Shown piece after piece: positions 1,942-52,402 of a stretch of 64,000 nt of DNA. Location: NCBI GenBank assembly GCA_000993205.1, contig LBVU01000003.1:85820-149819 (forward strand), read 5' to 3'. Numbering within the stretch: the first letter of the stretch is position 1; each line of letters starts with the position of its first letter. Under the pieces are notes generated by a model that made no database searches, was not told the origin of the DNA, and was given only the letters and a program-made list of their open reading frames with translations. The stretch is from Candidatus Woesebacteria bacterium GW2011_GWB1_39_10 (GTDB taxonomy: Bacteria; Patescibacteriota; Microgenomatia; UBA8517). The position numbers and the translations under genes were made by a program.

Positions 1942-3402
1942 GTGAAAAAGACAATCGCAAAATTTATCCTCAATCATCCTTTGACTATTCTCTCTCTAAT
2001 ATATTTTCTTTCAAGAATAATCAACTTAACCAAACTCCCTATTTTTAATGATGAAGCAATTTATCTGGACTGGGGTTGGAAATCTCTTCACACCAGTGCG
2101 GGTTTGTTTTATTCATTGTATGATGCCAAACCCCCTCTCCTTATTTGGATTTTCGGAATATTTGAAAGCGTTTTTAATTCACCACTTCTGGCGGGCAGGA
2201 TCGTATCCGTTATATTTGGATTTTTGACATTAGTCGGAATATTTAAAATCGCAAAAAACTTAGGAGACGAAAGGTTCGCGCGTTTATCTTCAATCATTTA
2301 TATTATTGTTCCTCTTTTCGCTTTTTTTGACCGCCAGGCTTTGATGGAATCAGCGGTCGGGGCCACTGGCATTTGGTCCTTTTATTTTTTACTAAAGGTT
2401 CTTGAAACCAAAAAAACTCAATACGCGATTTACCTGGGTTTGATTCAGGGGTTGGGCATCTTTACAAAACTTTCGGCACTTGTTTTTTTGATTCCGATCG
2501 GTTTAATTTTGATTTACAGAAAACGTTTTAAAGAAACTGTTGTATCTATCATAACCGGTCTTATTGTTCTCGCCCCACTCTTTTTTCAAAAAATATTTTG
2601 GACCTCATTTAACGCCAATAATCGTTTTATTTTGTCTGTTCCGGAAATTTTGGTCTTCCCACTTTCTTTGTGGATAAAAAATTTTTCAACCTCAATCGAT
2701 GTATCATTTTTCCACTTAACCCCCCTGATTTTTATATTAGGAATTTACGGACTATATTTATCTGTAAGAGATAAAATTGGGATTCTTCCCATATTTTTCT
2801 TGACAGGGTGCCTCCTTGTCATACTTCTCGGCAGATCTATCGGTCCAAGATATTTGACGGCTTTTCTTGTATTAACACCAATCTTCGCGTCACGGGCAAT
2901 TTTTAGTTTTAAAAAAACACCTGCAATTTTAATCGGAGGCACCTCAACTTTCACGGCAATCGCTGTAACTTCACTTTTAATTTTTTCTCCTATCGTCTAC
3001 TTCAATTCTATGGACAAAGTGACAACATTTTCGCAAAAATCTGAATATATAACAGGCTGGACATCGGGATATGGGATTTTGGAGACGGTAGATTATCTAA
3101 ACCAAAAAGCGAAGGATGAAAAAATAATCGCCGGTTTTAGAATTGATGCGGGTAATCCCGAAAGTGCGATGTTTGTATATTTTAACAACTCGGCTAGAGT
3201 AAAACCAATATATATAGATTCAAAGAATCTTGACAAATCCATCTTAAATCTAAATTGTGTGAAAAGCCCATTTCCTATATATTTCGTGGCCCGGGCTGGA
3301 AATTTAGCGGGGCTTGATAAACTCTTTATCGAAGAAAAGAGGTTTTATAAACCGGAGGCAAAAGACTTCGTTTCTATCCACAGGCTCAAGAAGTGTGATT
3401 AA
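1942..3402 (+). CDS. GT-C membrane glycosyltransferase, PMT/ArnT (GT39/GT83)-like
   Basis: 486 aa, GTG start. Multi-TM with a first-loop 'FNDEAIYLDWG' DE motif typical of dolichyl/undecaprenyl-phosphate sugar transferases. Confidence 0.7.
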   Translation: MKKTIAKFILNHPLTILSLIYFLSRIINLTKLPIFNDEAIYLDWGWKSLHTSAGLFYSLYDAKPPLLIWIFGIFESVFNSPLLAGRIVSVIFGFLTLVGIFKIAKNLGDERFARLSSIIYIIVPLFAFFDRQALMESAVGATGIWSFYFLLKVLETKKTQYAIYLGLIQGLGIFTKLSALVFLIPIGLILIYRKRFKETVVSIITGLIVLAPLFFQKIFWTSFNANNRFILSVPEILVFPLSLWIKNFSTSIDVSFFHLTPLIFILGIYGLYLSVRDKIGILPIFFLTGCLLVILLGRSIGPRYLTAFLVLTPIFASRAIFSFKKTPAILIGGTSTFTAIAVTSLLIFSPIVYFNSMDKVTTFSQKSEYITGWTSGYGILETVDYLNQKAKDEKIIAGFRIDAGNPESAMFVYFNNSARVKPIYIDSKNLDKSILNLNCVKSPFPIYFVARAGNLAGLDKLFIEEKRFYKPEAKDFVSIHRLKKCD

Positions 3403-7080: not shown

Positions 7081-7409
7081 TCATCCTGAATTCATTTCAG
7101 GATCTTCCTTGTCCTGAACTTGTTTCAGGATCTGCGTGAACAAATCCTTGAACTCCGGATTTTTTGTTTTAATCAAATCAATCTTCCATTCTCTATGCAA
7201 TTCTTGAGTTGTTTTTCTCTTTTGATCGCTTCCAATATTTCTTCAAAAACCTCGTAATAAAGAAGTTTGTAAGTCTTATATTTAGAGCTAAACATACTAC
7301 CAAACCCACTTCTATGCCGCGCAATTCTATTAATTAAATTAGAAGTCACCCCAATATACAAAACCGGTTTTTGATTTCCCAAAATGTAAACGAATCCTTG
7401 TTTAGACAT
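7081..7409 (-). pseudogene. GIY-YIG nuclease family protein, frameshifted near 7197
   Basis: 'FVYILGNQKPVLYIGVTSNLINRIARH' GIY-YIG motif. Frame 0 stops at 7173 ('...REKQLKNCIENGRLI*'). The +2 frame continues as the family-typical 'HREWKIDLIKTKNPEFKDL...' to 7081. A single missing G (TGG to TG) would restore '...QLKNWHREWKIDLI...'. Confidence 0.7.
7083..7131. repeat. Two tandem hairpins with YCCTGAA-N5-TTCAGGR stems
   Basis: ATCCTGAA-ttcat-TTCAGGAT (7083-7103) and TCCTGAA-cttgt-TTCAGGA (7112-7130). Related to the hairpins at 7420-7472 and to the infB/dnaK leader elements. Confidence 0.6.
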
Positions 7410-7419
7410 AATGACAAAG

Positions 7420-7472
7420 ATACTGAAACGAGTTCAGTATGACACACGCAGAAGCTGAACTGAATTCAGCTT
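7420..7472. repeat. Two hairpins, ATACTGAA-N5-TTCAGTAT and AAGCTGAA-N5-TTCAGCTT, between the Lon-like and GIY-YIG genes
   Basis: Perfect 8-bp stems at 7420-7440 and 7452-7472. Same CTGAA/TTCAG core as 7083-7131. Confidence 0.6.
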
Positions 7473-7486
7473 GACTCGGTGACTCA

Positions 7487-8533
7487 TCACTGTGGTATAA
7501 ATGTCTTTACGTTTTCGGAAGTTACCCGAACTTCTTTAGCTTTTCCTTCAACAATCATCCTGGCCACCTTACGCACAACTCCGTCGATATTCCGCTCAAG
7601 TGTACGGATTCCGGCGTCATAGCCCAAGGGTCTAACAATATTAGGCCAAACTTCGTCGGAAATAACAAGTGAGCCTTCAGGCAGCCCCGATGCTTTCATT
7701 GCGGCCGGCAAAATATATCTTTGAGCGATAACAGTCTTTTCCTGGTCGGAATAACTGGGCATGCTAATGGGCTCAAGCCTATCCATAACGGCAGTTGCGA
7801 TGCTTGTGGTGTTATTGGCTGTTGCAATAAACAGAGTCTCGGAAAGGTCGAAGGGGAAGTCGATATAATGGTCCACATAGGCATAATTCTGTTTGGGGTC
7901 CAAAAGCTCGACCAAAACTCCCATTATGCTGCTTCTGCCCTGTTCTGTAACCCTGTCGATTTCGTCCAAAAGTATAACCGGATTTCTGCACTGGGTATCC
8001 CTCAAGGCCTTAATAACTTTCCCAGGTTCTGCCTCAGGGTGCATTCGCGATTGACCGCGAAGGTCTAAAGGGTCTCCCATACCTCCAAAGGGAATACGGG
8101 CAATAGGCCTGCCCAGCGCTTCTGCAATCGAATAAGCAATCGTTGTTTTACCGGTACCAACAAGCCCCACAAAACATAGAATCGGGGCACGATACAAATC
8201 TTTCATTTCCCCTTTTTCGGTTTTTAGTTTCATAACACTCATGTACTCCAAAACACGGGTTTTAATATCATCAAGGCCATAGTGGTGAGCTTCAAGAATT
8301 TTCTTAGCATTTTCCAGGTCCAGAGTATCCTGGATTCTTTTGTTCCAGGGAAGGATTGTTATCCAATCAATATATTTTTCCATGCTGTCAAACTCGGGTA
8401 AAAATGAGGGGGAATTAGTAAGCTTGGCCAGTTGATTAAGACGAACCAGAACCATCTCGCGGAGTTTATCCGGTAAGCTGGCATTTTTAATTCTTTCTAT
8501 TAAAACAGTAATTTCCTGGGCAGCAGGTTCCAT
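7487..8533 (-). CDS. Lon-like AAA+ ATPase module, with no Lon N-domain and no S16 protease domain
   Basis: 348 aa. 'YIDWITILPWNKR...HYGLDDIKTRVLEYMSV...ILCFVGLVGTGKTT...VILLDEIDR...LLDPKQNYAYVDHY' aligns to the Lon ATPase core and alpha-helical subdomain. The ORF ends before any Ser-Lys protease domain. No SD upstream. Confidence 0.75.
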   Translation of the reverse strand: MEPAAQEITVLIERIKNASLPDKLREMVLVRLNQLAKLTNSPSFLPEFDSMEKYIDWITILPWNKRIQDTLDLENAKKILEAHHYGLDDIKTRVLEYMSVMKLKTEKGEMKDLYRAPILCFVGLVGTGKTTIAYSIAEALGRPIARIPFGGMGDPLDLRGQSRMHPEAEPGKVIKALRDTQCRNPVILLDEIDRVTEQGRSSIMGVLVELLDPKQNYAYVDHYIDFPFDLSETLFIATANNTTSIATAVMDRLEPISMPSYSDQEKTVIAQRYILPAAMKASGLPEGSLVISDEVWPNIVRPLGYDAGIRTLERNIDGVVRKVARMIVEGKAKEVRVTSENVKTFIPQ

Positions 8534-8559
8534 ACATTCATGATATCACGAAGTCTTTT

Positions 8560-9429
8560 TTAAATCCCAATTTTCCAAACACCATTCTCCCTAAATGCAG
8601 GTATTGCCTGTCTTTTAGCGGAGTTGAAAACCCCGGACCCTTCTAATCTATTTATTTTTACATATTCAGTCAGTGTTATTATTTTCAGACCTTTCAGATA
8701 GGTTATTCTTTTATTTAAAGACTCTATCAGGGCTTTGCTGATTATTTTAGTCATTAACTTTATGCTTTTGGTATCGTTAAACTCGTTAAAGGCTAAATAA
8801 TACTCAAGCTTTTCTTTATTTTTAACAATGATGTTTGGAAAACCAAGACTTAATAGTTGGAAGTTCAGTAAAACTCGACCGATTCTTCCGTTTCCGTCAT
8901 TAAAAGGGTGGATTGATTCAAACCCGAGGTGAAAACCAGAAATCTTATCCAAAAAATATTTTGTATTGTCGCTTGAATAACTTAACAACAAATCAGAAAT
9001 TAAACCTTCAATTTTTTCTGGTGGAGCGCCAATATGCGTCCCTACGCGAACATTTTCCGTCCCATTCCTAAATCTTCCCGAAATTTTGTCATTAATATTA
9101 TCTAAGAGCATTTTATGGAGAAACAAAATTACATGAATATCTAAATCAGTTCTTTCTTTATTTCTCAAATATTCAAAAATCCGGGCCAAATTTTTAGCCT
9201 CAAAAACCTCCCTTAAACTAACATCACGGGGAACCTCCATTTCCATGAGGATTTTTTCTGTCTCTTTCAAGGTAAGAGTCGAGTTTTCAATAGCATTGCT
9301 GTTATAGACACTCTCGGCGATTTCAGCCTCGTCTATTAAATTAAGCAAAGAGGATTTTCCTACCCTTCGTTGATCAAATTCCTTTTTGAGCTCATCGATT
9401 TTGGCTTTTGTAGAAGTTCCAACTGTCAT
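8560..9429 (-). CDS. Fic/Doc family protein (Fido AMP-transferase) with an N-terminal inhibitory motif
   Basis: Canonical Fic motif 'HPFNDGNGRIGR'. N-terminal 'SNAIEN' matches the (S/T)xxxE(G/N) auto-inhibitory helix motif (class II arrangement). Confidence 0.85.
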   Translation of the reverse strand: MTVGTSTKAKIDELKKEFDQRRVGKSSLLNLIDEAEIAESVYNSNAIENSTLTLKETEKILMEMEVPRDVSLREVFEAKNLARIFEYLRNKERTDLDIHVILFLHKMLLDNINDKISGRFRNGTENVRVGTHIGAPPEKIEGLISDLLLSYSSDNTKYFLDKISGFHLGFESIHPFNDGNGRIGRVLLNFQLLSLGFPNIIVKNKEKLEYYLAFNEFNDTKSIKLMTKIISKALIESLNKRITYLKGLKIITLTEYVKINRLEGSGVFNSAKRQAIPAFRENGVWKIGI

Positions 9430-9447
9430 ATAGTCATATTATACAAT

Positions 9448-9516
9448 ATTCACGCCTTTTTGTCAAATATGCGTGAATTTATGTCAAAAGTCGCCCAAAT
9501 TCACGCCAAATTCACC
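9448..9516. promoter_or_regulatory. TTCACGC repeat cluster (putative operator) in the Fic/DinD divergent promoter region
   Basis: ATTCACGCC (9448-9456), inverted GCGTGAAT (9471-9478), ATTCACGCC (9499-9507), AATTCACC (9509-9516). The spacer carries a TGTCAAA x2 direct repeat. Confidence 0.5.
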
Positions 9517-9534
9517 TTCCGAAGTCTTTCCTTG

Positions 9535-9563
9535 CCCTTCCGTAGCCTTGGCGAAGGAGGGTC
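9535..9563 (+). repeat. GC-rich ~29-bp repeat family, copy A (intergenic)
   Basis: 'CCCTTCCGTAGCCTTGGCGAAGGAGGGTC'. See copies at 29001, 29481, 49411 and 49945. Confidence 0.7.
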
Positions 9564-15766: not shown

Positions 15767-17197
15767 CTAGCGGATGGATACTATCACGTCACCCACCCCG
15801 AAATCAAGCTGAGGTTCAAGTATCGCTCCGAATTCTTCGGAAGGTCCAACCGAGGCAACCTCATTTTTTTGTTTTCTGATTGAAACTATTTTTGCCTTTC
15901 CTATTGTTTTTTCGTTCCTTAAAAGAACGACTGTGTCACCTTTTGTGATTCTGCCGCTAACTACTTTTGCGCCGGCAACTTTTTTGTTATTAAAAGGAAA
16001 ACTCGCCAATATGTTTGCGCGTCCTATTTCCTGGATCTTACCTTTTTTAAGTATTTCTTCCAACCTCTGTATAAACTCATAAATTATTTCAAATCTTTCC
16101 AATCTCACATTCTCCGCTTCTGCCAGTTTGGTCACATCGCTTCCTATTTTGGACTCAAAAGAAAAGATATAAGCATTTCCGGTTTTGGCCGCAATTACAT
16201 CCGACGAATTTATTTCTCCGACTCCGTTATCAACAACAATAATTTTAGGCGGAATGGACGCGATAATTGCTTCCAGTGCCCCCGCATTACTAGCCTTAAT
16301 TATTATCGGGATCTCGTCTTCCCGAAGCCGCCTAAGATCAAAAGTTCCTCGAGCCTTCGGAGGCGCAGACCCCGAACTTGCTTCAGGGTTTTCGCCAACT
16401 CTGGCTCCAACCGGCGGAACCAGGCTAAAACCAATAACTTTCGCGGGGTACCCCGGCAAGACTTCGCGAATTGTTTTTCCTTTATCATCAAATAATCCGC
16501 GTACTTTGCAAAGAACTTCTTCGGCAAAAATTGTCTGACCCACCTTTATACTGCCGTTTCTGACAACTACTGAAGCCACCTGACCCATCTTTTCCTTGTT
16601 TGACTCAATAACGACACCTTCAAGATCTGCCGCCGGGTCCCCTTTTAAATCGGCGACTTCAGACATTAGAATAATCATTTCTAATAGTTCCTTTATCCCC
16701 GTCCCGATTTTTGCCGAAACCGAGAAAAAAGGAACATCTCCACCACGTCCTTCAAAAAAAACCTGCTCTTTTTCAAGCTGTCCTTTAAGCGCCTCAACAT
16801 TAACCCCGACAACGTCTGCCTTAGTTCCCGCAACAAGAAATGGGATTTTAGCATCCCGTATTATTTGTAAGGCTTCCTTGGTCTGGGGAGCAACTCCATC
16901 GTCTTGAGCAACCACAAGTACGGCAATATCGGCAATTTTAGCTCCGCGACTGCGCATCTTGGTAAATGCCGCATGTCCCGGAGTATCTATGAAGGTTATT
17001 TTTTTATTTATCCCGCCTGTGGACGGGACCTCAATTACACTGGCCCCTATTGCTTGTGTTATTCCTCCCGCCTCAGCACCAGCCACATTAGTTTTTCTTA
17101 TCGCGTCTAGCAACGTGGTTTTTCCATGATCGACATGGCCGAGCACCACAACAATTGGCGGGCGTGTTTGATTATTTTGATTTTTATTTTCTTCCAT
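15767..17197 (-). CDS. infB: Translation initiation factor IF-2 (short form lacking N-terminal domains)
   Basis: 'VVVLGHVDHGKTTLLDAIR...DTPGH...' G-domain, then domain II and the C-terminal domains. 476 aa. Confidence 0.9.
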   Translation of the reverse strand: MEENKNQNNQTRPPIVVVLGHVDHGKTTLLDAIRKTNVAGAEAGGITQAIGASVIEVPSTGGINKKITFIDTPGHAAFTKMRSRGAKIADIAVLVVAQDDGVAPQTKEALQIIRDAKIPFLVAGTKADVVGVNVEALKGQLEKEQVFFEGRGGDVPFFSVSAKIGTGIKELLEMIILMSEVADLKGDPAADLEGVVIESNKEKMGQVASVVVRNGSIKVGQTIFAEEVLCKVRGLFDDKGKTIREVLPGYPAKVIGFSLVPPVGARVGENPEASSGSAPPKARGTFDLRRLREDEIPIIIKASNAGALEAIIASIPPKIIVVDNGVGEINSSDVIAAKTGNAYIFSFESKIGSDVTKLAEAENVRLERFEIIYEFIQRLEEILKKGKIQEIGRANILASFPFNNKKVAGAKVVSGRITKGDTVVLLRNEKTIGKAKIVSIRKQKNEVASVGPSEEFGAILEPQLDFGVGDVIVSIR

Positions 17198-24794: not shown

Positions 24795-24822
24795 CACTTC
24801 ATTACTATATAGTAATGAAGTG
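24795..24822. promoter_or_regulatory. 28-bp perfect palindrome CACTTCATTACTAT|ATAGTAATGAAGTG in a divergent promoter region
   Basis: Core TTACTATATAGTAA is shared with the palindromes at 25273-25306 and 48103-48130. Sits 2 nt upstream of the TrpR-like start. Confidence 0.7.
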
Positions 24823-24824
24823 AT

Positions 24825-25274
24825 ATGACAAAAGTTTCAGGACTTCCACTTAGGCCAGATGTTTGGAATAGAGTATTGGAACTATTTGTTTCTACACTTG
24901 CCAACCAAACGAATAATAAAAAATTGTCGGAGTTTTTCGATGACTTTTTCTCCCCAACAGAAAAAATAATGTTTGCCAAACGGCTTGCGGCGGCAGTTTT
25001 ACTGGCCAAAAACCATGATTACCAAAGCATCCATGAAATTCTCAGAATCAGTCCTCCCACAATAGCAAAATTGAGTTTGAAAATTAAATACGGGGGAGAA
25101 GGACTAAAACCCGTGATAGAAGATATTTTTAAAAAGGAAGCAAATCAAATAGTTTGGAAGGAAATCGAGAGTCTGTTTGATCTGCCAACTAAAGGAAATA
25201 TAAAATCTCCTGAAAGATTTAAAAGAAACCTCAAACGCGAGCAAAAAATTCGAGAAATAAAATCCGAATTTTAA
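24825..25274 (+). CDS. TrpR/YerC-YecD-like DNA-binding protein
   Basis: 'LSEFFDDFFSPTEKIMFAKRLAAAVLLAKNHDYQSIHEILRISPPTIAKLS' matches the Trp-repressor-like YerC/YecD pattern. Confidence 0.65.
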   Translation: MTKVSGLPLRPDVWNRVLELFVSTLANQTNNKKLSEFFDDFFSPTEKIMFAKRLAAAVLLAKNHDYQSIHEILRISPPTIAKLSLKIKYGGEGLKPVIEDIFKKEANQIVWKEIESLFDLPTKGNIKSPERFKRNLKREQKIREIKSEF

Positions 25275-25306
25275 ATACTTAATTACTATATAGTAATTAA
25301 GTATTT
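25273..25306. repeat. 34-bp perfect palindrome AAATACTTAATTACTAT|ATAGTAATTAAGTATTT
   Basis: Located between the convergent TrpR-like and dnaJ genes. Second copy of the TTAATTACTATATAGTAATTAA core. Confidence 0.7.
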
Positions 25307-28175: not shown

Positions 28176-28655
28176 TCAGGATAATTGTTTGCTAACAATC
28201 ACCTTCGCATGTCTTACTACATTACCATCTTTAAACTTCCAACCCGTAACAAGAACCTCTGAGATCATATTATCCATCTTTCCGTCAATTACTTCAATAA
28301 CTTCTTGACTGTTTTCGTCAAATTCACTTCCAATTTTAGGATTTATTTCTTCCAAACCTTCTTCAATAAAAACTTTTTTAAATTCCAAAATCGATATCGC
28401 AAGTCCGGAATCTTTTAGATGCTCCTGAGCTTTTTCTAACATGTCCATTATTGGCAGCAGTCTTGAGATTATGCTTAAAGACGAAAATTTTGTCCAAGAA
28501 ATTTTCTCTTCCTCAGTCCTTCGCTTTAAATTATCATAATCCGCCAAAGTTCTTGCCAGTTGGCTTTTCAGCTGTTCCATCTCCAAACTATTCGCTACCA
28601 GGGCTTTGACTGGCCAAGCTTTGCTTATTCGCTTTTCGCTTTTCGCTTTTTTCAT
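28176..28655 (-). CDS. grpE: Nucleotide exchange factor GrpE
   Basis: 159 aa, positioned between hrcA and dnaK, with a GrpE C-terminal pattern. Confidence 0.85.
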   Translation of the reverse strand: MKKAKSEKRISKAWPVKALVANSLEMEQLKSQLARTLADYDNLKRRTEEEKISWTKFSSLSIISRLLPIMDMLEKAQEHLKDSGLAISILEFKKVFIEEGLEEINPKIGSEFDENSQEVIEVIDGKMDNMISEVLVTGWKFKDGNVVRHAKVIVSKQLS

Positions 28656-29413
28656 TGGTTTGCAACTTCCTCAATTAAATTACCAAAATATCTCAAAATC
28701 GGAATGACTGACGCATAGTCTGCTCTGGCGGGGCCAATCACTCCAAGGGCCCCAGGCTTTCCTTTTATACTAAAATGTGTCGAAATTATTCCCGACGTTG
28801 CCAGTTCCGGCATTCCTAATTCTTCACCAAACAAAACTTCCAAGGGTGAAGTAGACTGGAATCCAAAGAAAAGCCTGTCTAGTTTATCAAACTCATCAAA
28901 AATTGAAAATAGATTCTGACAAGCTGCCATTTCTGCAAACTCAGGATTATTAAAAACATAGGAATGTCCAGCCTGCCAAAAGCGGTCCCTCGCCCCGCGA
29001 AGCCCATTGGGTGAAGTGGGGTTTTTTAGTGCCGCTATCGCGAGGGAGCGTGTCCGACTTGCCAAGGCGTGTGTTGCCTCGTCCATGAGTTCGTCGATAT
29101 CGTCCCGAGAGTCCCAAACTTCCTCTTTAGCTTTGACTTCATCGACCAAGCTCATTTGTTTTTCTTCCATAAGTTGATTTATATAAAATTTCATCGCAAG
29201 CGGCGACGGAATTCTTCCTGCTGAGGTATGGGGTTGACGGAGGTAACCGGATTTTGTCAGCGCAACCATTTCGTTTCTGATTGTTGCCGGGGAAACTCCA
29301 AGATTATATTTTTTGTCGAGTGCGTCACTTCCCACAGGTTCGGCAGTTTCGATATATTCATCAATAATCGTCTTTAATATTTGGGTTTGACGGGAAGTAA
29401 GTGAATCAGTCAT
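28652..29413 (-). CDS. hrcA: Heat-inducible transcription repressor HrcA (short)
   Basis: 'LTSRQTQILKTIIDEYIETAEPVGSDAL' N-terminal wHTH. hrcA-grpE-dnaK-dnaJ order. Carries an in-frame GC-rich repeat insertion (29001-29032). Confidence 0.85.
   Translation of the reverse strand: MTDSLTSRQTQILKTIIDEYIETAEPVGSDALDKKYNLGVSPATIRNEMVALTKSGYLRQPHTSAGRIPSPLAMKFYINQLMEEKQMSLVDEVKAKEEVWDSRDDIDELMDEATHALASRTRSLAIAALKNPTSPNGLRGARDRFWQAGHSYVFNNPEFAEMAACQNLFSIFDEFDKLDRLFFGFQSTSPLEVLFGEELGMPELATSGIISTHFSIKGKPGALGVIGPARADYASVIPILRYFGNLIEEVANQ
29001..29032 (+). repeat. GC-rich repeat family, copy B (inside hrcA, translated in-frame as NPTSPNGLRGA)
   Basis: 'CGCCCCGCGAAGCCCATTGGGTGAAGTGGGGT'. Confidence 0.7.
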
Positions 29414-29440
29414 TTAGCAGTATCTTACCTCGAGTGCTAA
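29414..29440. promoter_or_regulatory. CIRCE-like operator TTAGCAGTA-N9-GAGTGCTAA abutting the hrcA start
   Basis: Right half is a perfect GAGTGCTAA; left half matches 7/9. The N9 spacer (GAGGTAAGA on the mRNA strand) carries the only SD-like sequence for hrcA. Confidence 0.75.
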
Positions 29441-29480
29441 CAGTTGTCAAGGGGTAGCACCAGTCGGCGCACCCCGCAGA

Positions 29481-29523
29481 CCCCGCGAAGCCCTGAGCGT
29501 AGTCGAAGGGGCGAAGTGGGGTC
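29481..29523 (+). repeat. GC-rich repeat family, copy C (expanded; intergenic upstream of hrcA)
   Basis: 'CCCCGCGAAGCCCTGAGCGTAGTCGAAGGGGCGAAGTGGGGTC', flanked by related 'CACCCCGCAGAC' and 'CCTCGCAGACC' fragments. Confidence 0.7.
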
Positions 29524-29652
29524 AAGAGCCGTTTAGCTCCTCGCAGACCTTGAACGAAACCGAAGGATAAAGCGCTGATTTAGACAATACCCAACAGAAA
29601 TCCACCCGACCTTGACAAACCTTAGATTAATCTATAGACTAATCTTACTACT

Positions 29653-33779: not shown

Positions 33780-35081
33780 ATGATCAAAAAAAATAAAATA
33801 CCAACAATTTTAGGCATTATTATACTTCTTGCCGGAATTTTTGCCGGGGTCTTCTTTTTGGGCATGAATCAAGTTTTTAAAATTGGGGCAGATAGTTCCA
33901 TCGCTCCAAAAGATATTCGTATAAGTAATATTGACAACAGTTCCGCAACTATATCGTGGATCACAGATAAAGAAACTTTTAGTTTTGTTTCTTGGGGAGA
34001 GGGTCAAACGTCGTTAAACAAAATTGAAAGGGAGGGAAACGAAAAACTCTCAATTCATACCATTTCACTCACGGGGCTCAAACCCGGCACTAAATATTTC
34101 TACAAAATAAATTCCGGCGGAACGATGTTCGATAATAAAGGAATTCCGTGGCAGTTTTCTACCGGACCGGATTTGGGAATTAATCAGAAAGGTTTTCTTA
34201 TATCGGGCTCTGTCATAAACGCTTCCGGAGAACCGGAAAGGGAAGTCCTTGTCTATATAAATATCGACGGATATCTTCTTTCTACACTAACATCAAACAC
34301 GGGAAACTTTGTTTTTCAATTAGGGTCGGTCAGAACTCAAGATCTGGCCGACTATGCGCAAATTGACAAAGCCCAAACACTGCTACAGATTTCGGTTCAA
34401 GCGGGAGACCACGGGGTCGCTTCTGCGCAGATTTTTCCCCAATCTGCCAACCCCGTTCCACCCATGGTCCTGGGGCAGGTCTATGATCTAAGGAGTCTTC
34501 AGCCTTCCGAAAGTGGCCAAATTCCAACTGCAAACTTAAGCCTCCCGGAAGATGCAACAAAAGAATCAAAATTTTTTATCCCCATAGCAACGGGTTCTCC
34601 TACCCCGACCAGTGTAATACTGGAAAGCCTCAATGAAGGAGAAATTGTAACGAATTCCCGACCGGAATTTTTTGGCCGTGGCCCGGGAGGAGAAAAAATC
34701 ACCATTACAATTCAATCAGATCCGATTTCGCAAGATATGTTTATCGCCAGTGACGGCACTTGGACGTTTAGCGCACCAGTCGATTTAGGGGCAGGCGCTC
34801 ACTCAATTACAATTTCTTGGATTGATTCAAACGGAATAACCAGAACCCTTACCAGAAACTTCATTGTCCAAGCCAGTGAAAATCCTGCTTTTACTGCATC
34901 TGATTCAGGAATATTCCCCTCACCCAGCGCTTCTCCGGGGGCAACACCCACCACAACACCAACCGCCTCCCCTAAACCAATTCCGGTTACTGGTGAAACA
35001 GCGCCCACTCTTATATTGTTTGCGATAGGTGTAGCAATAATGATTTTCGGCACCTTTATCTGGAAAATGTCTGAAAATTAA
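33780..35081 (+). CDS. Surface protein with Fn3-like and Ig-like domains and an LPXTG-like C-terminal sorting signal
   Basis: 'ISNIDNSSATISWIT...LKPGTKYFYKI' Fn3/PAP-N-like. C-terminus 'IPVTGETAPTLILFAIGVAIMIFGTFIWKMSEN' reads as sortase motif + hydrophobic segment + charged tail. Confidence 0.6.
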   Translation: MIKKNKIPTILGIIILLAGIFAGVFFLGMNQVFKIGADSSIAPKDIRISNIDNSSATISWITDKETFSFVSWGEGQTSLNKIEREGNEKLSIHTISLTGLKPGTKYFYKINSGGTMFDNKGIPWQFSTGPDLGINQKGFLISGSVINASGEPEREVLVYINIDGYLLSTLTSNTGNFVFQLGSVRTQDLADYAQIDKAQTLLQISVQAGDHGVASAQIFPQSANPVPPMVLGQVYDLRSLQPSESGQIPTANLSLPEDATKESKFFIPIATGSPTPTSVILESLNEGEIVTNSRPEFFGRGPGGEKITITIQSDPISQDMFIASDGTWTFSAPVDLGAGAHSITISWIDSNGITRTLTRNFIVQASENPAFTASDSGIFPSPSASPGATPTTTPTASPKPIPVTGETAPTLILFAIGVAIMIFGTFIWKMSEN

Positions 35082-37895: not shown

Positions 37896-38453
37896 ATGAA
37901 AAAATCTAAATTTGTAACTGGTTTAATAATAATTATTACCCTGATCTTGGCGGGTGTTGCCATTTTTACCGCTATCAGGCTGTATCAACTTCGACAAACA
38001 TCCGTGGCTCCAAATGTTCCGGAAAGTAATCCCAAAGCCGCCGGTAGTTGCAGTCTTTCTTTCACCTTAACAACATCCACCGCTTCCCCAACTGCAACAG
38101 CTACACCAACCGCTACCGCAACGGCCACAGCCACAGCAACTGCCACGGCAACCGCTACAGCTACCGCGACTGCTACCGCAACCGCAACTGCAACAGCTAC
38201 ACCAACCGCTCCACCGAACTCATGCGGCGGAACTTGCGGAAGCAATTTTAACTGTGGAAGCGAATTGGTTTGCTACAACGGTTACTGTAGAAACCCGTCT
38301 TGTACAGCTGAAAATGACTGTGTTTGTAACGGTACACCGGGTCCAACCGCAACACCACCGACTCTTCCACAATCAGGAACGGATTGGCCGACTATGGTAG
38401 GAGCCGGACTTGGAATATTGGTTATCTTGGGGTCAATCTTACTGGCACTTTGA
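37896..38453 (+). CDS. Membrane-anchored protein with (Ala-Thr)n repeat, Cys-rich module and C-terminal TM
   Basis: 'TATATPTATATATATATATATATATATATATATATATPTAPP', then 'CGGTCGSNFNCGSELVCYNGYCRNPSCTAENDCVCNG', then 'LPQSGTD'+TM. Confidence 0.6.
   Translation: MKKSKFVTGLIIIITLILAGVAIFTAIRLYQLRQTSVAPNVPESNPKAAGSCSLSFTLTTSTASPTATATPTATATATATATATATATATATATATATATATPTAPPNSCGGTCGSNFNCGSELVCYNGYCRNPSCTAENDCVCNGTPGPTATPPTLPQSGTDWPTMVGAGLGILVILGSILLAL
38089..38215 (+). repeat. In-frame (GCN-ACN)n hexanucleotide-type repeat encoding (AT)n
   Basis: About 21 tandem Ala-Thr codon pairs. GC-rich relative to the surroundings. Confidence 0.7.
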
Positions 38454-43868: not shown

Positions 43869-45803
43869 ATGAATGACGTAGACAAGCTAACAAACGATTT
43901 AAACAAAGACCAGTTCGCTGCCGTAATTTATACCGCAGGACCCCTTCTGGTTTTGGCCGGAGCGGGATCGGGAAAGACAAAAGTTTTAACACACCGTGTG
44001 GCCTATTTTATCCAACAAGGCCTAATTAAACCTGAAAACGCGCTTCTTTTAACATTCACCAACAAAGCAGCCACAGAGATGCGGCAAAGAATTAACGACC
44101 TACTCGGTCAGTCATCAGCCAACAGTAAACAGTCAACGGTTTTCTCCGGAACATTTCATAGTTTTTGTGCCAAAGTTCTCAGAATTGACGGAAAACATAT
44201 TGGAATTCCAATAAACTTCATTATTTACGATGATCAAGACCAAAAAGACGCCGTTAAACAAATTTTGGAGAGTATCAACATTTCAACTGATCAGTTTGCC
44301 CCGGCTTCAATTTTAAACGGAATCGGAGAAGCAAAGAATCAAATGTTGACTCCGGCCGAGTACAAGAATTTTGTCAGAGGTGAGTGGCAAGAGGTGGTTG
44401 CCAAGGTCTACGAGCAGTACGAAAAAATGCTCAAGGATATTGGGGCTCTGGATTTTGATGACCTGATGATCAAAACAGTCCAACTTTTCAAGGAGGTTCC
44501 GGAAATTCTTACAAAATGGCAAACAACTCTAACACATATTTTCGTTGACGAATGGCAAGATACAAATAAAATCCAGTACACCCTAACAAAACTTTTAGTC
44601 GGAAAAAATCGCAACATTACAGCGGTGGGGGATGCTTCCCAATCGATTTATTCATGGCGAGGAGCTGACTATCGAAATATAACACTACTTACGAGGGACT
44701 ACCCGGATATTAAAATCGTTAATTTAGAACAAAATTACAGATCGACTCAAAACATTCTTGATGCCGCCAACCTGGTCATTTCAAAAAATACAAATCATCC
44801 TATTTTGAAACTTTGGACAGATAAACACGCTGGATCTAAAATCAAGCTCTACTCTGCCAGAAATGGTTTTGATGAGGCAGATTTTGTTGTTTCTGAAATT
44901 CAATCCCGAGATTCAAAGTATGGCGACTTCGCCATACTTTATCGCACCAATGCCCAATCCCGTGTTTTAGAGGAGGCCTTCTTACATGCCGGCATTCCTT
45001 ATTCCTTAGTTGGAGGGACAAGATTTTACGACCGTAAAGAAGTCAAGGATATCATTAGCTACTTAAAATATTTAGTTAATCCAAAAGATTCAGTTTCCCG
45101 AAAGAGGATTGAGAAAATCGGAATTCGTCGTTTTGAAAAATTAGAAGAATTTCGCAACTCCCAAAATTCCCTAAATTCCCTAACCACCTTGGAAATGCTT
45201 GATGCTGTTATACAAAAAACCGATTATCTTTCTTTGTTTCAAAAGGAATCGGAAGAAAATTTGGCCCGTCTGGAAAACATAAAGGAATTAAGAAGCGTCG
45301 CCACAGAATTCCCCGCTATCAGTGATTTTTTGGAAAATGTTGCGCTTGTGGAATCAACCCAAAAACCTGCTAATTCCGCCTCAATTGCTAAAGATTCCGT
45401 GACCCTTATGACCCTGCATGCGGCCAAGGGATTGGAATTCCCGATCGTTTTTATAGTTGGCATGGAGGAGGGACTTTTCCCCCACAGTAGAAGCTTAATG
45501 GACGGAAATCAGCTGGAGGAGGAACGTCGTTTGGCATATGTGGGTATCACCCGTGCCAAAGATGTTCTTTATTTAACTTATGCCAGTTCCCGTCTTTACT
45601 TCGGAGAAAGAATCAGTAACCCCCCGAGTAGGTTTATAATGGACATTCCAGAGGACTTGATCGAGAATATAGATGCTAATATATGGAAGGATGACTTGTC
45701 CTCCAAAGCCTTGGCGTCGGAGGATCTAAAATTGGATTCTGTAGAAGATATCAAGGGAACTTTTGACGATATAATTGAGAAATATTTACCACATGACGAC
45801 TAA
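43869..45803 (+). CDS. UvrD/PcrA/Rep-family DNA helicase
   Basis: 'LVLAGAGSGKTKVLTHRVAYF', 'IFVDEWQDTN', 'GTFHSF', 'VGITRAK'. Confidence 0.9.
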   Translation: MNDVDKLTNDLNKDQFAAVIYTAGPLLVLAGAGSGKTKVLTHRVAYFIQQGLIKPENALLLTFTNKAATEMRQRINDLLGQSSANSKQSTVFSGTFHSFCAKVLRIDGKHIGIPINFIIYDDQDQKDAVKQILESINISTDQFAPASILNGIGEAKNQMLTPAEYKNFVRGEWQEVVAKVYEQYEKMLKDIGALDFDDLMIKTVQLFKEVPEILTKWQTTLTHIFVDEWQDTNKIQYTLTKLLVGKNRNITAVGDASQSIYSWRGADYRNITLLTRDYPDIKIVNLEQNYRSTQNILDAANLVISKNTNHPILKLWTDKHAGSKIKLYSARNGFDEADFVVSEIQSRDSKYGDFAILYRTNAQSRVLEEAFLHAGIPYSLVGGTRFYDRKEVKDIISYLKYLVNPKDSVSRKRIEKIGIRRFEKLEEFRNSQNSLNSLTTLEMLDAVIQKTDYLSLFQKESEENLARLENIKELRSVATEFPAISDFLENVALVESTQKPANSASIAKDSVTLMTLHAAKGLEFPIVFIVGMEEGLFPHSRSLMDGNQLEEERRLAYVGITRAKDVLYLTYASSRLYFGERISNPPSRFIMDIPEDLIENIDANIWKDDLSSKALASEDLKLDSVEDIKGTFDDIIEKYLPHDD

Positions 45804-48102: not shown

Positions 48103-48130
48103 AACTTAATTACTATATAGTAATTAAGTT
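48103..48130 (+). terminator. Third copy of the AT-rich palindrome (AACTTAATTACTAT|ATAGTAATTAAGTT) followed by TTTTTAG
   Basis: Lies in the convergent intergenic region. A hairpin plus T-run on the + strand fits a terminator. The shared core with 24795 and 25273 suggests it is also a regulator site. Confidence 0.55.
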
Positions 48131-48131
48131 T

Positions 48132-51092
48132 TTAGCTTCTGGATTTGCAAAACATTGAGAACTCACATTTTCCCTGACAAAAAAAGTTGTTGTTGCATTT
48201 GAAATCCGAATTTTCGATTTCGTCACGGATCTTTAAAATTTCTTCTTTTACTTTTTCCAGATCTTTCTCTGTCCTGGTTGTAGAAATTTTTTCCTGAGTA
48301 TCCAAATAATAAAGTGAAAGTTTTATATCTTCCGGTTTTATCTTTCTTATATTGCTCATCGCTAATGCATAAAAAGATAATTGAAGATCTTTATTAACTT
48401 CTTTTTGAGTAGGAATCGTTGCCCCGGTCTTATAGTCAATAATTTCTATTCTGCTTCCACCCAAATCATCAACCCTGTCGATTGTGCCGCCGATCCGCAA
48501 GGATCGTCCTGAACTCGTTTCAGGACCTAACGGTAGAACAAATTTTCCCTCAAGCAAAATAGTTCTTATCTTTGGATCATACCCATTCTTTATAAATCCC
48601 TGAAGATAAAGCTCGCCTTTCTTGTAGAATTCCTGTTTATGTTTTTTGTTTAAATATCCATCTTCGAGGAAAGATTCTTTATATATTTCAATCAATCTTT
48701 CCGAAAAACCCCGTAAAGCCGCAGGCGTTGTGGGGTTCAATGAAATTTCTTGATAGAATTTTTTAAGCGTCTCATGAATCGAAATTCCGAAACTACTCGA
48801 TGCAAAAGCTTTTGTCGGAAGTTTGTAAACATATTTAAGTTTGTAATGTAGCGGACATGTTTGGAATGTTTCGATTTGACTCACCGAAAGGTATTCTACC
48901 TTTCGTGGCTCTATGCTATATGGTTTATGCTTTATGGGTTCGCTACCATATTGCTTATGGCTTAAAGCATATGGCTTTTCATTGGCATAAGGCATACGGC
49001 TTGTGGCATCTTCCCCAAGCGTTTCATACACGAACGGGCTAATTTTCTTCTTTCTCTTTGCCTCACCATAGAAATCCGCCGCGCTAAAGTACAATTTTTC
49101 CTTTGCTCTGGTCATTCCAACATAAAAAAGCCTTCGCTCTTCCTGCAAATGAAAATCCCCTTCCGGTAAAACTTCTTTTATTAATTCTTGTGGAATTGGA
49201 ATTTGTTCATGACGTTCGCGTCCAGGAAATCTCTCCCCCACCAGGTTAACCAAAAACACGATCGGAAATTCAAGGCCTTTCGAAGAATGAACTGTCAAAA
49301 TATTTACGGCGTTATTTTCCTGCCAGTCGCCATCTGTAACATTGGGGCTCTCCCCCACCTCAAGCAAAAGATCTATATAGTCCACAACCTCAGCAACCCA
49401 ATTTTTGCTTGCCCCGCGAAGCCTTGGCGAAGTGGGGTCGTCTTCATAGGATTTAATCTTTTCAAAAAACTTGGCAATGTTTTTGGCTTTGGTGTCCTCC
49501 GAATTTTCTATCAACTTTTGCAACAACCCAATCTCCCGAATACAATCGTATAAAATTTCCCCGGCTGTCTGAGACTTAATTACTTTTAAATGCTTATCGA
49601 TAATCAACAAAAGTTTTTTGATTTGTTCATTTCCTGATTCTGCCGCGATTTCAAAAACCGACAAGCTTCTCTTTTTTGCTGCAGATGAAATTTTAATAAG
49701 CTCCAATGGAGATATATCAAAAATGTCAGATGATAATAGTCTGTAAAAAGATTCTGAATCTTCCGGGTTATATAAAATTTTGAGATATGAAATCAAATCA
49801 ACAATTTCCTCTTTTTCAAATAAATTACTTGGTCCCAAAAATTGATTTGGTATCCCCCGTCTTTCTAGTTCTCTTACAAATGGATCTGCATGGTTGTTCG
49901 CACGTATTAAAATAGCCATGTCTTTAAAATCATATCGTGCGAACCTTCCCGAAGCCTTGTGCGAAGGAGGGTTGGTTGTCAATTTGAGGATCTCCTTCAC
50001 AACAGAGTGCGCCTCATCCCCAACATTGGCGGCATGAACAAATTTTATTTCCGACTTCCCGCCCCTAACTTCCGACTTCAATCGCTTGTCTATCCCCTCC
50101 ACAACTTCCAACCTGTCCGGGTTGTTGTGTTGAATTAAATCATATGCCCTATCCAGAATTTCTTGAATAGAACGGTAGTTTTTTGTAAGAACTATTATTT
50201 TTGTTTTTGGAAACGTTTTTCTAAATTGAATAATGTTAGAAACCGCCGCTCCGCGGAAACGGTAAATTGATTGATCATCGTCCCCCACCACTGTAATATT
50301 TTGAGATTTGCCAGCCAAAAGAATGGCGAGTTGATTTTGCGCAAAATTTGTATCCTGAAACTCATCTATTAAAATATATTTAAATTTCTCTTGATAAATT
50401 TTAAGAATATTAGGACGTTCTTTGAAAAGTTTTATCGTATTTGTGATGAGGTCACCGAAATCCATTACGTTTTCTTTTATTTTTAGATCACTATATTTTT
50501 TATAAGCATTGGCCAACTCCACATTTTTCTTGGCTTCTAGTTTTTCCTCATCACTCAATTTTAAATTTTTAATTTTAAATTTTAAATTCACCCATGCGAC
50601 ATAGTCGCTGGGTGCTACGCATTCATCCTGCAGTCTATTAAAGTGTTGCAAAAGTCCATCAATAAACTTATTCGGGTTCCCCAAGGGTCTAAAATAATCT
50701 AGATCGAGGTCAAATAGGTTTTTTCTGACTAGATCAATTGCTTGCGCTTCTGTCATTAATTTATAACTCGGAGATAGACCAATGTGTATCGCATTATCCC
50801 GGAGAATTTGATCGCAAAAAGAATGAAATGTCATAACCCACATTTGTGTATAACCATATGGGAGTGCCACATCAATTCTTTCTTCCATTTCCTTTGCCCC
50901 TTTTTCTGTAAAAGTCAGCGCCAATATCTCTTCGGGTTTGGCCAGTCCACTCATTATTAAGTGTTTAACCCGCTCGGAAATTACTGTGGTTTTGCCAGTC
51001 CCCGCGCCGGCGATAATGAGAAGCGGTCCATCGCCAAACTTGACGGCTGCGATTTGCTCTTTGTTGAGTTTTAAATTTGAAGTTTCTATCAT
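48132..51092 (-). CDS. UvrD-family helicase fused to a C-terminal Cas4/AddB-type PD-(D/E)xK nuclease with Cys cluster
   Basis: N-terminus 'LIIAGAGTGKTTV', 'ILIDEFQDTN'. C-terminus 'TCPLHYKLKY...RIEIIDYKTG...CNNNFFCQGKCEFSMFC'. Contains a KPY-type low-complexity linker and two in-frame GC-rich repeat copies. Confidence 0.8.
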   Translation of the reverse strand: MIETSNLKLNKEQIAAVKFGDGPLLIIAGAGTGKTTVISERVKHLIMSGLAKPEEILALTFTEKGAKEMEERIDVALPYGYTQMWVMTFHSFCDQILRDNAIHIGLSPSYKLMTEAQAIDLVRKNLFDLDLDYFRPLGNPNKFIDGLLQHFNRLQDECVAPSDYVAWVNLKFKIKNLKLSDEEKLEAKKNVELANAYKKYSDLKIKENVMDFGDLITNTIKLFKERPNILKIYQEKFKYILIDEFQDTNFAQNQLAILLAGKSQNITVVGDDDQSIYRFRGAAVSNIIQFRKTFPKTKIIVLTKNYRSIQEILDRAYDLIQHNNPDRLEVVEGIDKRLKSEVRGGKSEIKFVHAANVGDEAHSVVKEILKLTTNPPSHKASGRFARYDFKDMAILIRANNHADPFVRELERRGIPNQFLGPSNLFEKEEIVDLISYLKILYNPEDSESFYRLLSSDIFDISPLELIKISSAAKKRSLSVFEIAAESGNEQIKKLLLIIDKHLKVIKSQTAGEILYDCIREIGLLQKLIENSEDTKAKNIAKFFEKIKSYEDDPTSPRLRGASKNWVAEVVDYIDLLLEVGESPNVTDGDWQENNAVNILTVHSSKGLEFPIVFLVNLVGERFPGRERHEQIPIPQELIKEVLPEGDFHLQEERRLFYVGMTRAKEKLYFSAADFYGEAKRKKKISPFVYETLGEDATSRMPYANEKPYALSHKQYGSEPIKHKPYSIEPRKVEYLSVSQIETFQTCPLHYKLKYVYKLPTKAFASSSFGISIHETLKKFYQEISLNPTTPAALRGFSERLIEIYKESFLEDGYLNKKHKQEFYKKGELYLQGFIKNGYDPKIRTILLEGKFVLPLGPETSSGRSLRIGGTIDRVDDLGGSRIEIIDYKTGATIPTQKEVNKDLQLSFYALAMSNIRKIKPEDIKLSLYYLDTQEKISTTRTEKDLEKVKEEILKIRDEIENSDFKCNNNFFCQGKCEFSMFCKSRS
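49411..49439 (+). repeat. GC-rich repeat family, copy D (in-frame in helicase-nuclease; encodes DDPTSPRLRGA)
   Basis: 'GCCCCGCGAAGCCTTGGCGAAGTGGGGTC'. Confidence 0.7.
49945..49973 (+). repeat. GC-rich repeat family, copy E (in-frame in helicase-nuclease; encodes NPPSHKASGR)
   Basis: 'CTTCCCGAAGCCTTGTGCGAAGGAGGGTT'. One extra base relative to copy D, so it is translated partly in a different frame. Confidence 0.7.
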
Positions 51093-52372: not shown

Positions 52373-52402
52373 CCACTTAAATACTGTACAGTATTTAAGT
52401 GG
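52373..52402. promoter_or_regulatory. 30-bp perfect palindrome CCACTTAAATACTGT|ACAGTATTTAAGTGG
   Basis: Overlaps the 3' end of the MBL gene, upstream of the repeat-protein gene. No U-tract in the transcribed direction. Confidence 0.55.

Follow-up and report, generated by a model that had tools for sequence, protein, structure and literature searches.

The 64-kb stretch of Candidatus Woesebacteria bacterium GW2011_GWB1_39_10 analyzed here (contig LBVU01000003.1; hereafter the window) raises the question of why one short GC-rich hairpin recurs along it, even inside the reading frame of hrcA. The organism is a groundwater member of the Candidate Phyla Radiation (CPR), and the window has a G+C content of about 40% and a negative GC skew throughout. 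A first-pass annotation had described five copies of the motif in one orientation. The motif proved to be real and restricted to one strand, but the count was too low, as the copy at 48709-48735 and a weak one at 45700-45723 had been missed. Altogether, six firm copies and one weak copy were found, all on the + strand. Five of the seven lie within genes: one in hrcA, three in a gene for a UvrD-family helicase fused to a PD-(D/E)XK nuclease, and the weak one in a PcrA-like helicase gene. The evidence presented below indicates that the hairpin is very probably a mobile or selfish in-frame insertion element. As a whole, it is best explained, in our view and with some reserve, as a non-autonomous selfish mini-element of the kind represented by repetitive extragenic palindromic sequences (REPs) and Rickettsia palindromic elements (RPEs).

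Anatomy of the hairpin and its insertion sites

The hairpin follows the formula CCCCGC-GAA-(stem-loop)-GAA-GTGGGG, with window cores of 26-41 nt except for the weak copy. The outer stem CCCCGC/GTGGGG is conserved together with a G.T(U) wobble and is followed by a symmetric GAA/GAA internal loop; the inner stem-loop is free in sequence and length (3-9 bp), yet it stays paired. On the 5' side, an unpaired tag with the consensus gCTTG was conserved (G53, C71, T55, T71 and G86 of 103 copies), and neither a GTAG nor a CGTC tag was present in the 5' flank consensus of these copies. The complete unit of tag and hairpin measures 30-45 nt.

Pairing of the inner stem was supported by covariation. In an alignment of 84 copies, the first free pair was CG in 46, UA in 29, AU in 3, UG in 3 and GC in 2 copies, with a single non-pair. 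The observed covariation score was reached by none of 500 shuffles, and pairing was destroyed when the partner column was slid. The window copies at 9535, 45700, 48709 and 49944 have changed outer stems or internal loops and still fold; in the last of these, the outer stem is altered on both sides with pairing retained.

A covariance model derived largely from the copies of other genomes, with five of the seven window sites within its training alignment, recovered all seven sites with E values from 1e-12 to 0.05 (Table 1), and nothing of comparable score was found on the - strand of the window. The exact 12-mer CCCCGCGAAGCC occurs three times in the window, compared to about 0.008 occurrences expected (128 kb, both strands). 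Rfam returned no match in the window at the gathering threshold, and a permissive search (E up to 10) of positions 28900-29650, which contain two copies, gave one chance match of E = 1.4 located beside the element.

The copy in hrcA had been placed at 29001-29032 by the first-pass annotation. Its location inside the gene and its reading as NPTSPNGLRGA were correct, but the coordinates were 8 nt off, the core being 28993-29021. The open reading frame (ORF) reads ...ALKNPTSPNGLRGARDRFW..., and the protein context is ALK-NPTSPNGLRGA-RDRFW. Of 120 HrcA orthologues with 77-94% identity, about 47 had nothing inserted (ALKD^KKDRFW), and the most similar of all, at 94% (complete genome CP066686), was among these. 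PTSP..LRG-type inserts were found in about 11; in the remainder, different short inserts occupied precisely this position.

In the DNA, the empty sequence GTY TTT TTT G^TC TTT (orientation of the motif) was found in about 38 related loci. A clean boundary pair was obtained between the empty allele GTTTTTTTTG^TCTTT and the filled allele GTTTTTTTTG(CTTG + 29-nt core)TCTTT of loci L133, L127 and L194, so that the inserted unit comprises tag and hairpin, 33 nt in total. No target duplication was observed at this junction beyond a 1-nt ambiguity. Compared to these filled relatives, 6 nt of flank, or two codons, have since disappeared from the window copy. Copying of the outer stem from the target (inverted target duplication) was considered and rejected, as the T-rich hrcA target bears no relation to the stem. 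The same site also holds a version with a 26-nt core (P0024) and unrelated GC-rich hairpins (L128/L129/L144 and L183). In a neighbour-joining tree of HrcA, the insert state was scattered, with 33 Fitch changes over 120 leaves, which is an upper bound because the tree is poorly resolved; the filled allele of the window is sister to one empty allele and one allele with another insert. The simplest reading is repeated gain, replacement and loss at one hotspot in hrcA.

HrcA in the window and its relatives is 243-265 aa long, compared to 338 aa in Thermotoga maritima (PDB 1STZ), with which the N-terminal winged helix alone could be aligned. An AlphaFold model of HrcA was unusable for placing the insert, with a mean pLDDT (predicted local distance difference test) of 50 and the insert region modeled as coil at pLDDT 31-43.

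The helicase-nuclease gene carries three copies of the hairpin and one copy of a second hairpin family described below. The three copies are read in one shared frame as NPPSHKASGRFA, DPTSPRLRGAS and NPTTPAALRGFS, and all three inserts are missing in most orthologues; at 49408..49437, the orthologues read EDENKNAGV with no insert. Since close orthologues have empty sites or other inserts, the insertions are lineage-specific and in-frame, in agreement with what the first-pass annotation had proposed for HrcA. The empty allele at the second helicase site is ATTTTTG^TTTTC, in which a T-run is followed by G, as at hrcA. A second clean filled/empty junction was sought in L140 and L141 and abandoned, as the region is too variable and its alignment ambiguous.

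The motif was not confined to the sites of the window. When one genome per species was scanned with the pattern CCCCGCGAAGC-N(2-26)-GAAGTGGGG, at least 118 loci with a match were obtained, and an inner stem of at least 3 bp was formed in approximately 104 of 120 matches among those listed. The groups listed with an inner stem were Saccharibacteria, Peregrinibacteria/Peribacteria, Paceibacterota, Woese-, Roizman-, Gottesman-, Davies-, Beckwith-, Shapiro-, Levy-, Nomura-, Kaiser-, Staskawicz-, Zambryski-, Andersen-, Berkel- and Woykebacteria, and one Nanoarchaeia metagenome-assembled genome (MAG). Five listed matches bear names from outside the CPR (Laspinema, Pontibacter, an actinomycete, Thermoanaerobaculia and Gemmatimonadaceae) and were treated as chance because all of them lack the inner stem. 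Copy density was 7 in the 64-kb window compared to 6 in 826 kb of hrcA-linked DNA of relatives (default filters).

The element was also present in MAGs titled "uncultured Gammaproteobacteria/Pseudomonadales bacterium" (L006, L008, L024, L028, L031, L038 and about 20 further loci). Spread beyond the CPR was not deduced from these titles and the labels were distrusted, given that the helicase-nuclease of at least L038 closely resembles, by eye, that of the window; the record titles are probably wrong taxon mappings. The Nanoarchaeia copy (L009, 2507-2532) is well formed and followed by a T-run, terminator-like, on a 3.9-kb contig binned as a DPANN archaeon, which reflects either cross-domain spread or mis-binning. 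In 2.9 million viral contigs only one match was found, and a phage-borne element was rejected.

A marked dependence on reading frame was observed. Copies of the scan were counted as genic when they lay within a stop-free span of at least 600 nt, which applied to 62 of 104. A core length of 2 modulo 3 was found in all 48 antisense and 13 of 14 sense copies (61/62 in genes), compared to 29 of 42 non-coding copies. Together with the 4-nt tag, this makes the unit length in genes a multiple of three, a pattern from which purifying selection on the reading frame is deduced. All three antisense frames are used (PTSP..LRGA in 25, PHFA..ASRG in 15 and PLR..FAGQ in 8 copies).

Among the matches listed, genic copies were thus antisense in 48 cases versus sense in 14. 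Two causes of this bias are possible, namely selection against a stable hairpin in the mRNA or a target bias toward A-rich (Lys-codon) coding strands. The suggestion that the element could fold in RNA was borne out in part. The inner stem covaries and the + strand folds with -15.1 and -19.4 kcal/mol (z -2.5 and -3.6), but the hrcA and helicase mRNAs carry the complement, which folds weakly at about -10 kcal/mol (z -0.8 and -0.4). In the window, 7/7 copies lie on the + strand under the uniformly negative GC skew. A link to the replication strand could not be shown at the other loci, where GC skew is confounded with gene strand, and non-coding copies showed no orientation bias (20/42).

The spacer upstream of hrcA had been taken for a source locus, which could not be maintained. 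The copy at 29481-29521 is simply one more long-loop copy, a variant that recurs in L040 and L057; CP066686 has a plain 26-nt form at the equivalent place, and nothing marks the spacer as a source. The supposedly related fragment CACCCCGCAGA is the 3' arm of an unrelated neighbouring hairpin, a close variant of which is present upstream of hrcA in relative L126, where the element is absent. Divergent promoters flank the copy, that of hrcA at 29450-29422 and that of phd/yefM at 29612-29640; lying between their -35 boxes, it is outside both transcription units. The hrcA promoter is overlapped by an operator, TTAGCACTC-N9-TACTGCTAA, resembling the controlling inverted repeat of chaperone expression (CIRCE); it was called with the established CIRCE consensus.

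Table 1. Hairpin copies, host genes and neighbouring features in the window (CM E, E value in the covariance-model scan).
Feature	Position	Strand	Sequence, structure or context	CM E
Intergenic variant	9531..9561 (core 9535-9561)	+	CTTG tag + CCCTTCCGTAGCCTTGGCGAAGGAGGG; between Fic gene (-) and Bro-N gene (+); near-identical copies in L141 and L140	8e-8
hrcA (host gene)	28652..29413	-	253 aa; grpE, dnaK and dnaJ come after
hrcA copy	unit 28989..29021, core 28993-29021	+	Tag CTCG + 29-nt core CCCCGC-GAA-GCCC-ATT-GGGT-GAA-GTGGGG; antisense to hrcA; translated N-PTSPNGLRG-A	1e-8
hrcA promoter and CIRCE-like operator	29414..29450	-	-35 TTGACA 29445-29450; -10 TAAGAT; operator 29414-29440
Separate neighbouring hairpin	29451..29475	+	GGGGTAGCACCAGTCGGCGCACCCC; not part of the element
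Long-loop intergenic copy	29481..29521	+	41-nt core; extended apical stem-loop GCCC-TGAGCGTAGTCGAA-GGGGC	9e-7 (match 29471-29531; outside training alignment)
Possible degenerate copy	45700..45723	+	CCTCC-AAA-GCC-TT-GGC-GTC-GGAGG; weak; sense, close to 3' end of PcrA-like helicase gene; peptide SSKALASED	0.05 (match 45689-45734; outside training alignment)
UvrD-family helicase fused to PD-(D/E)XK nuclease (host gene)	48132..51092	-	986 aa
Variant copy in helicase-nuclease ORF	48709..48735	+	CCCCGTAAAGCCGCAGGCGTTGTGGGG; peptide NPTTPAALRGF; DNA fold -8.5 kcal/mol, z -2.4	1e-4
Canonical unit in helicase-nuclease ORF	49408..49437 (core 49412-49437)	+	CTTG tag + 26-nt core CCCCGCGAAGCCTTGGCGAAGTGGGG; peptide DPTSPRLRGAS	1e-12
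Variant copy in helicase-nuclease ORF	49944..49971	+	CCTTCC-CGAA-GCC-TTGT-GC-GAA-GGAGGG; peptide NPPSHKASGRFA	3e-5

The GIY-YIG cassette at tRNA ends

The ORFs around the scan loci were clustered for recurrent families, and the top clusters were checked. One recurrent neighbour stood out, a small GIY-YIG nuclease gene. In L027, L033, L077 and L109, a distance of 3-75 nt separates the hairpin, in sense orientation, from the GIY-YIG ATG downstream of it; by our estimate, chance would give fewer than 0.1 adjacencies of this kind. The encoded protein has 79 aa, contains EKYLKSSSGYAF and ends in ...EKYLKSSSGFAFRNKHLI, and no DNA-binding domain is evident in it.

The association was also observed when loci were chosen by the protein. 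Similarity searching yielded 447 homologues, every named one from the CPR, and among 22 homologues called too long at the N-terminus, 15-17 encode the hairpin right before the true Met (..APRSLSEVG.. or ..VPREALAKWG..). All four loci selected by protein homology alone (L210-L213) showed the module tRNA-hairpin A (inverted)-spacer-hairpin B-ATG. A tRNA or tmRNA ending in ...CCA runs into an inverted-type hairpin, CACCAC-TTC-GC..GC-TAC-GCGGTG, which is followed by 50-70 nt of AT-rich spacer, by GCGAAGTGGTG, perfectly complementary to the first arm, by the direct-type hairpin and by the ATG. In every module, the covariance model found both hairpins on opposite strands.

In total, eight distinct loci, these four included, had an inverted pair of hairpins directly beside a GIY-YIG gene, at the ends of tRNA-Ala, -Glu, -Leu or tmRNA; at L109, no tRNA was found beside the gene. 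As the tRNAs differ (Ala with three anticodons, Glu, Leu, and tmRNA) and the downstream flanks are unrelated, the cassette of about 400 bp has occupied different tRNA ends. Where a hairpin stood at the 3' end of a tRNA or tmRNA gene, a GIY-YIG gene followed in 8 of 11 cases, among loci that were not a random sample and of which L213 and L214 are the same place. This positional association tentatively suggests the GIY-YIG protein as the mobilising enzyme, a proposal that we regard as plausible at best.

Solo hairpins were also found to abut tRNA genes to the nucleotide (L086, hairpin 1930-1962 and tRNA 1961-2034; L110, hairpin 7633-7658 and tRNA 7562-7633; L123, tRNA-Val 3203-3276). Some extend 1-2 nt into the tRNA at its 5' end and others begin directly past the 3' end. 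The ...CACCA end of a tRNA mimics the CCCCA end of the element.

Other candidate partners were rejected. In L088, inverted copies surround a 155-aa ORF and a tRNA; the ORF was suspected to encode a transposase, and Pfam gave only a weak match to DUF5673. Genes for 23S_rRNA_IVP four-helix-bundle proteins were near copies in 7 loci, at variable distance and orientation, and were judged to reflect background abundance. Neither a Y1 transposase nor a REP-associated tyrosine transposase (RAYT, of the Y1 HUH type) was present among the families recurring near the at least 118 copies, in a shallow screen limited to the top clusters.

Nature of the element and rival explanations

The likeness to REPs is considerable. 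Each is a GC-rich imperfect hairpin of 20-40 nt whose foot bears a conserved unpaired tetranucleotide (PMC3733652), both form sub-families differing in their stems and occasionally insert in-frame within genes, and both occur as an inverted pair beside a small nuclease gene, GIY-YIG for the element and RAYT for REPs. In contrast, the element has the tag CTTG instead of GTAG or CGTC, a GAA/GAA internal loop and a G.T wobble. It occurs mostly as intragenic singletons, whereas REPs are predominantly extragenic, downstream of ORFs. Its consensus is common to whole CPR classes and its neighbour is a GIY-YIG gene at tRNA 3' ends, whereas REPs are species-specific and neighbour a Y1 HUH transposase. 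REPs inside genes, often replication or repair genes, were documented by Di Nocera et al. 2013 (PMC3733652). In-frame small palindromes in genes having thus been described for REPs and RPEs, the behaviour itself is not new.

The first-pass annotation had compared the element to RPEs while assigning it to a different family, and this comparison was confirmed by the in-frame, orthologue-absent inserts and the distinct consensus. RPEs (Ogata et al. 2000, as summarised in PMC3733652 and PMC1779305) are likewise selfish palindromic DNA, inserted in-frame in genes that stay functional, lineage-specific among orthologues and found in reduced genomes. However, there is no sequence relationship, the element spans a superphylum while RPEs do not extend beyond Rickettsia, and the unit of the element measures only 30-45 nt. 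RPE-1 is about 100-150 bp long, and RPE-4 and RPE-6 are CGTC-type REPs.

Other systems were less similar. Miniature inverted-repeat transposable elements measure 70-300 bp, with the terminal inverted repeats of an insertion sequence (IS) and a target-site duplication; the unit in hrcA has 33 nt and no duplication. With IS200/IS605 elements (IS608, ISDra2) and small elements derived from them, the hairpin would share hairpin-dependent recognition, insertion beside a short specific target without duplication and strand asymmetry, but it is a single 30-nt hairpin, no TnpA was found in the top clusters, and a target preference was seen at two sites only. In yeast mitochondrial DNA, mobile GC clusters are short GC-rich hairpins in an AT-rich genome, sometimes in-frame in genes. 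They differ in being organellar and unrelated in sequence, and we know of no nuclease partner for them. A free-standing GIY-YIG homing endonuclease gene, segB, lies in the tRNA cluster of phage T4. Such homing genes resemble the cassette in being small genes at variable positions by conserved RNA genes that behave as mobile cassettes; however, homing copies a gene into the cognate empty allele and leaves the scattered 30-nt solo hairpins unexplained. GIY-YIG ORFs have also been noted in CPR rRNA insertions, without mention of hairpins (PMC11270868).

Copies of the element are thus added at new sites without target-site duplication, and the same sites are struck repeatedly. The targets include surface-tolerant, Lys-codon-rich stretches in essential genes. 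On the account of a selfish mini-element, copies in genes would persist only with a unit length that is a multiple of three, and preferentially in the orientation that gives the mRNA the weakly folding complement rather than the stable hairpin, giving peptides such as (D/N)PTSPxxLRGA(S). From the association with the nuclease gene only, we infer that the element may move as a folded single strand recognised by a structure-specific nuclease. The best candidate for the latter would be the 79-aa GIY-YIG protein, whose cassette occupies tRNA 3' ends in many CPR genomes with the inverted hairpin pair immediately upstream of the start codon. Solo copies would then relate to this cassette as REPs do to the RAYT gene.

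A bolder and rather doubtful extension is that the hairpins and the tRNA-anchored genes form an unrecognised CPR-wide mobile system. In it, a minimal structure-specific GIY-YIG enzyme, not an HUH or DDE transposase, would mobilise 30-nt hairpins and REPIN-like inverted doublets, and the hairpins would colonise essential genes in-frame, rewriting the same protein loops repeatedly. That each GIY-YIG subfamily has a cognate hairpin of its own is hinted at by the second hairpin family around the GIY-YIG gene of the window.

Several observations weigh against the selfish-element account and its proposed partner. REP-like elements normally differ between species, so that one consensus across classes is unexpected for them and could instead point to a conserved host function. 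A truly clean boundary was obtained for a single insertion, the remaining sites being ambiguous; the TTTTG target precedes just 8 of 104 copies and is not general, and hrcA-linked DNA of relatives carries few copies, as given above. With DNA parameters, the single-strand fold energies were unremarkable and neither strand stood out. Regarding the partner, the link between GIY-YIG and hairpin is purely positional. In L068, an A-spacer-B doublet stands at a tRNA end with no GIY-YIG gene, and two tRNA ends of L123 each bear a single hairpin; tRNA flanks may therefore be no more than a shared safe haven for hairpins. The cognate GIY-YIG subfamily is absent from the window, which has no tRNA, and the named GIY-YIG homologues are of Parcubacteria or Peribacteria type, with none from Woesebacteria or Microgenomates among them.

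The nearest rival is a classical REP moved by a Y1 HUH transposase (RAYT or a TnpA of the IS200/IS605 type) acting on single-stranded hairpins, with GIY-YIG incidental. The shared architecture, the absence of target duplication and the short adjacent T-rich/G target at the two sites examined, the location of all seven window copies on one strand, and the documented intragenic REPs in repair genes (PMC3733652) would all fit it. We nevertheless consider it unlikely, given the CTTG tag, the lack of any Y1 transposase in the shallow screen, the occurrence of solo copies as singletons rather than head-to-head dimers, and a consensus common to CPR classes where REP families are normally species-specific; literature tying RAYTs or REPINs to the CPR was also not found. 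Quite unlikely, too, is a structured RNA or DNA signal selected by the host (a hairpin for tRNA-leader or -trailer processing or stability, a protein-binding site or a terminator), with genic copies as by-products. The near-identical consensus across CPR classes, the compensatory changes, and the conserved G.U pair and GAA/GAA loop are typical RNA features; GIY-YIG cassettes and the 5' ends of two tRNAs (L086 and L110) have the stable strand as the transcribed one, and the hrcA copy with T6 matches an intrinsic-terminator pattern on the + strand. Against a host signal stand the mostly antisense position of genic copies, the copy upstream of hrcA outside both flanking transcription units, and the varying presence among 80-94% identical orthologues without positional conservation. 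There is no Rfam match, and no T-run generally follows the hairpin across the family, only the hrcA copy (+ strand) and L009 fitting the terminator pattern.

A DNA-uptake or chromosome-level signal, comparable to uptake signal sequences and DNA uptake sequences (USS/DUS), Chi or KOPS, could accumulate anywhere, including genes in tolerated frames. CPR lineages depend on DNA uptake, and uptake sequences sit in variable protein parts. The sequence is common to many CPR lineages, is present in coding and non-coding DNA and keeps one orientation throughout the window. However, the conserved feature is a single-strand structure with a free inner stem rather than a fixed double-stranded word, density is low and uneven among close relatives, and the non-coding copies lack an orientation bias with GC skew, which makes such a signal highly improbable. 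A convergent protein motif (a Pro/Ser/Gly-rich linker, PTSP..LRG) would account for a flexible, hydrophilic peptide at length-variable positions. It is hardly credible, as the same nucleotides are also present outside coding regions, in each of the three frames and in either orientation, which bears out the earlier view of a dispersed repeat at the DNA level. An assembly artefact is equally hard to credit, since the identical HrcA protein is present on 20 independent contigs from several projects.

In the open-access literature, no prior description was found of this hairpin, or of REP, RAYT or palindromic elements in the CPR. Genomes of CPR bacteria (Patescibacteria) are about 1 Mb in size, streamlined and largely from uncultured organisms, and the forces reshaping them are little known. 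Here, the same loops in HrcA, repair helicases and IF-2, all housekeeping proteins, repeatedly gain, exchange and lose an element shared by many CPR classes. The element is a source of protein-length variation that confounds alignments, phylogenies and gene calling, and a possible strain marker. CGTC-type REPs have no known transposase (Di Nocera et al., PMC3733652); if the GIY-YIG association is causal, it would set a precedent of a non-HUH mobilising enzyme for such "orphan" REPs and provide a minimal nuclease-hairpin pair testable in vitro.

Other palindromes and side observations

A second mini-hairpin family, TCCTGAA-N4/5-TTCAGGA, was observed in the window at 7084-7102, 7112-7130, 7422-7438, 16370-16388 and 48507-48525. 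Around the window's small GIY-YIG gene (7186-7409, - strand; Pfam PF01541, E = 1.5e-12), one copy lies 12 nt upstream and two just downstream. The gene appears frameshifted, with a missing G at ...KQLKN|W.... Solo copies of this family are present in-frame in the helicase and in IF-2, where they are read as GPETSSGRS and ENPEASSGS, respectively, an arrangement that parallels the main element. GPETSSGRS is missing from most orthologues, and other inserts are found at its site.

The 26-nt perfect palindrome ACTTMATTACTATATAGTAATKAAGT occurs at 24796-24821, 25277-25302, 48104-48129 and 52375-52400. A Trp-repressor-family gene (24825-25274, PF01371) is framed exactly by two of these copies; of the other two, one comes just after the 3' end of the helicase gene and one is located beside a gene with a metallo-beta-lactamase fold. 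The palindrome looks like the operator of a small regulon.

Compound structures were also noted. In L088 (1860-1975 and 2665-2790; also L028 and L090), the hairpin is nested in a larger compound palindrome, GTCATTGCGAG...CTCGCAATGAC, together with a second hairpin, CGTGGCAATC...GATTGCCACG; the 155-aa ORF and tRNA of L088 lie between two inverted copies. Hairpins nested in the loops of other hairpins were found in L211 (2941-3000).

Comparison of L141 (about 16165-16585) with window positions 8560-9429 showed that the sequences flanking the Fic/DOC gene are adjacent in L141, where 8 nt separate the matches to window segments 8463-8553 and 9516-9562. This makes the Fic gene an insertion/deletion polymorphism right beside the hairpin copy at 9535. 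Finally, ACNGCN repeats with a periodicity of 6/12/18 nt were observed at 38073-38228 (and 34920-34979), lying in ORF 37896-38453 as a Thr/Ala-rich low-complexity stretch.

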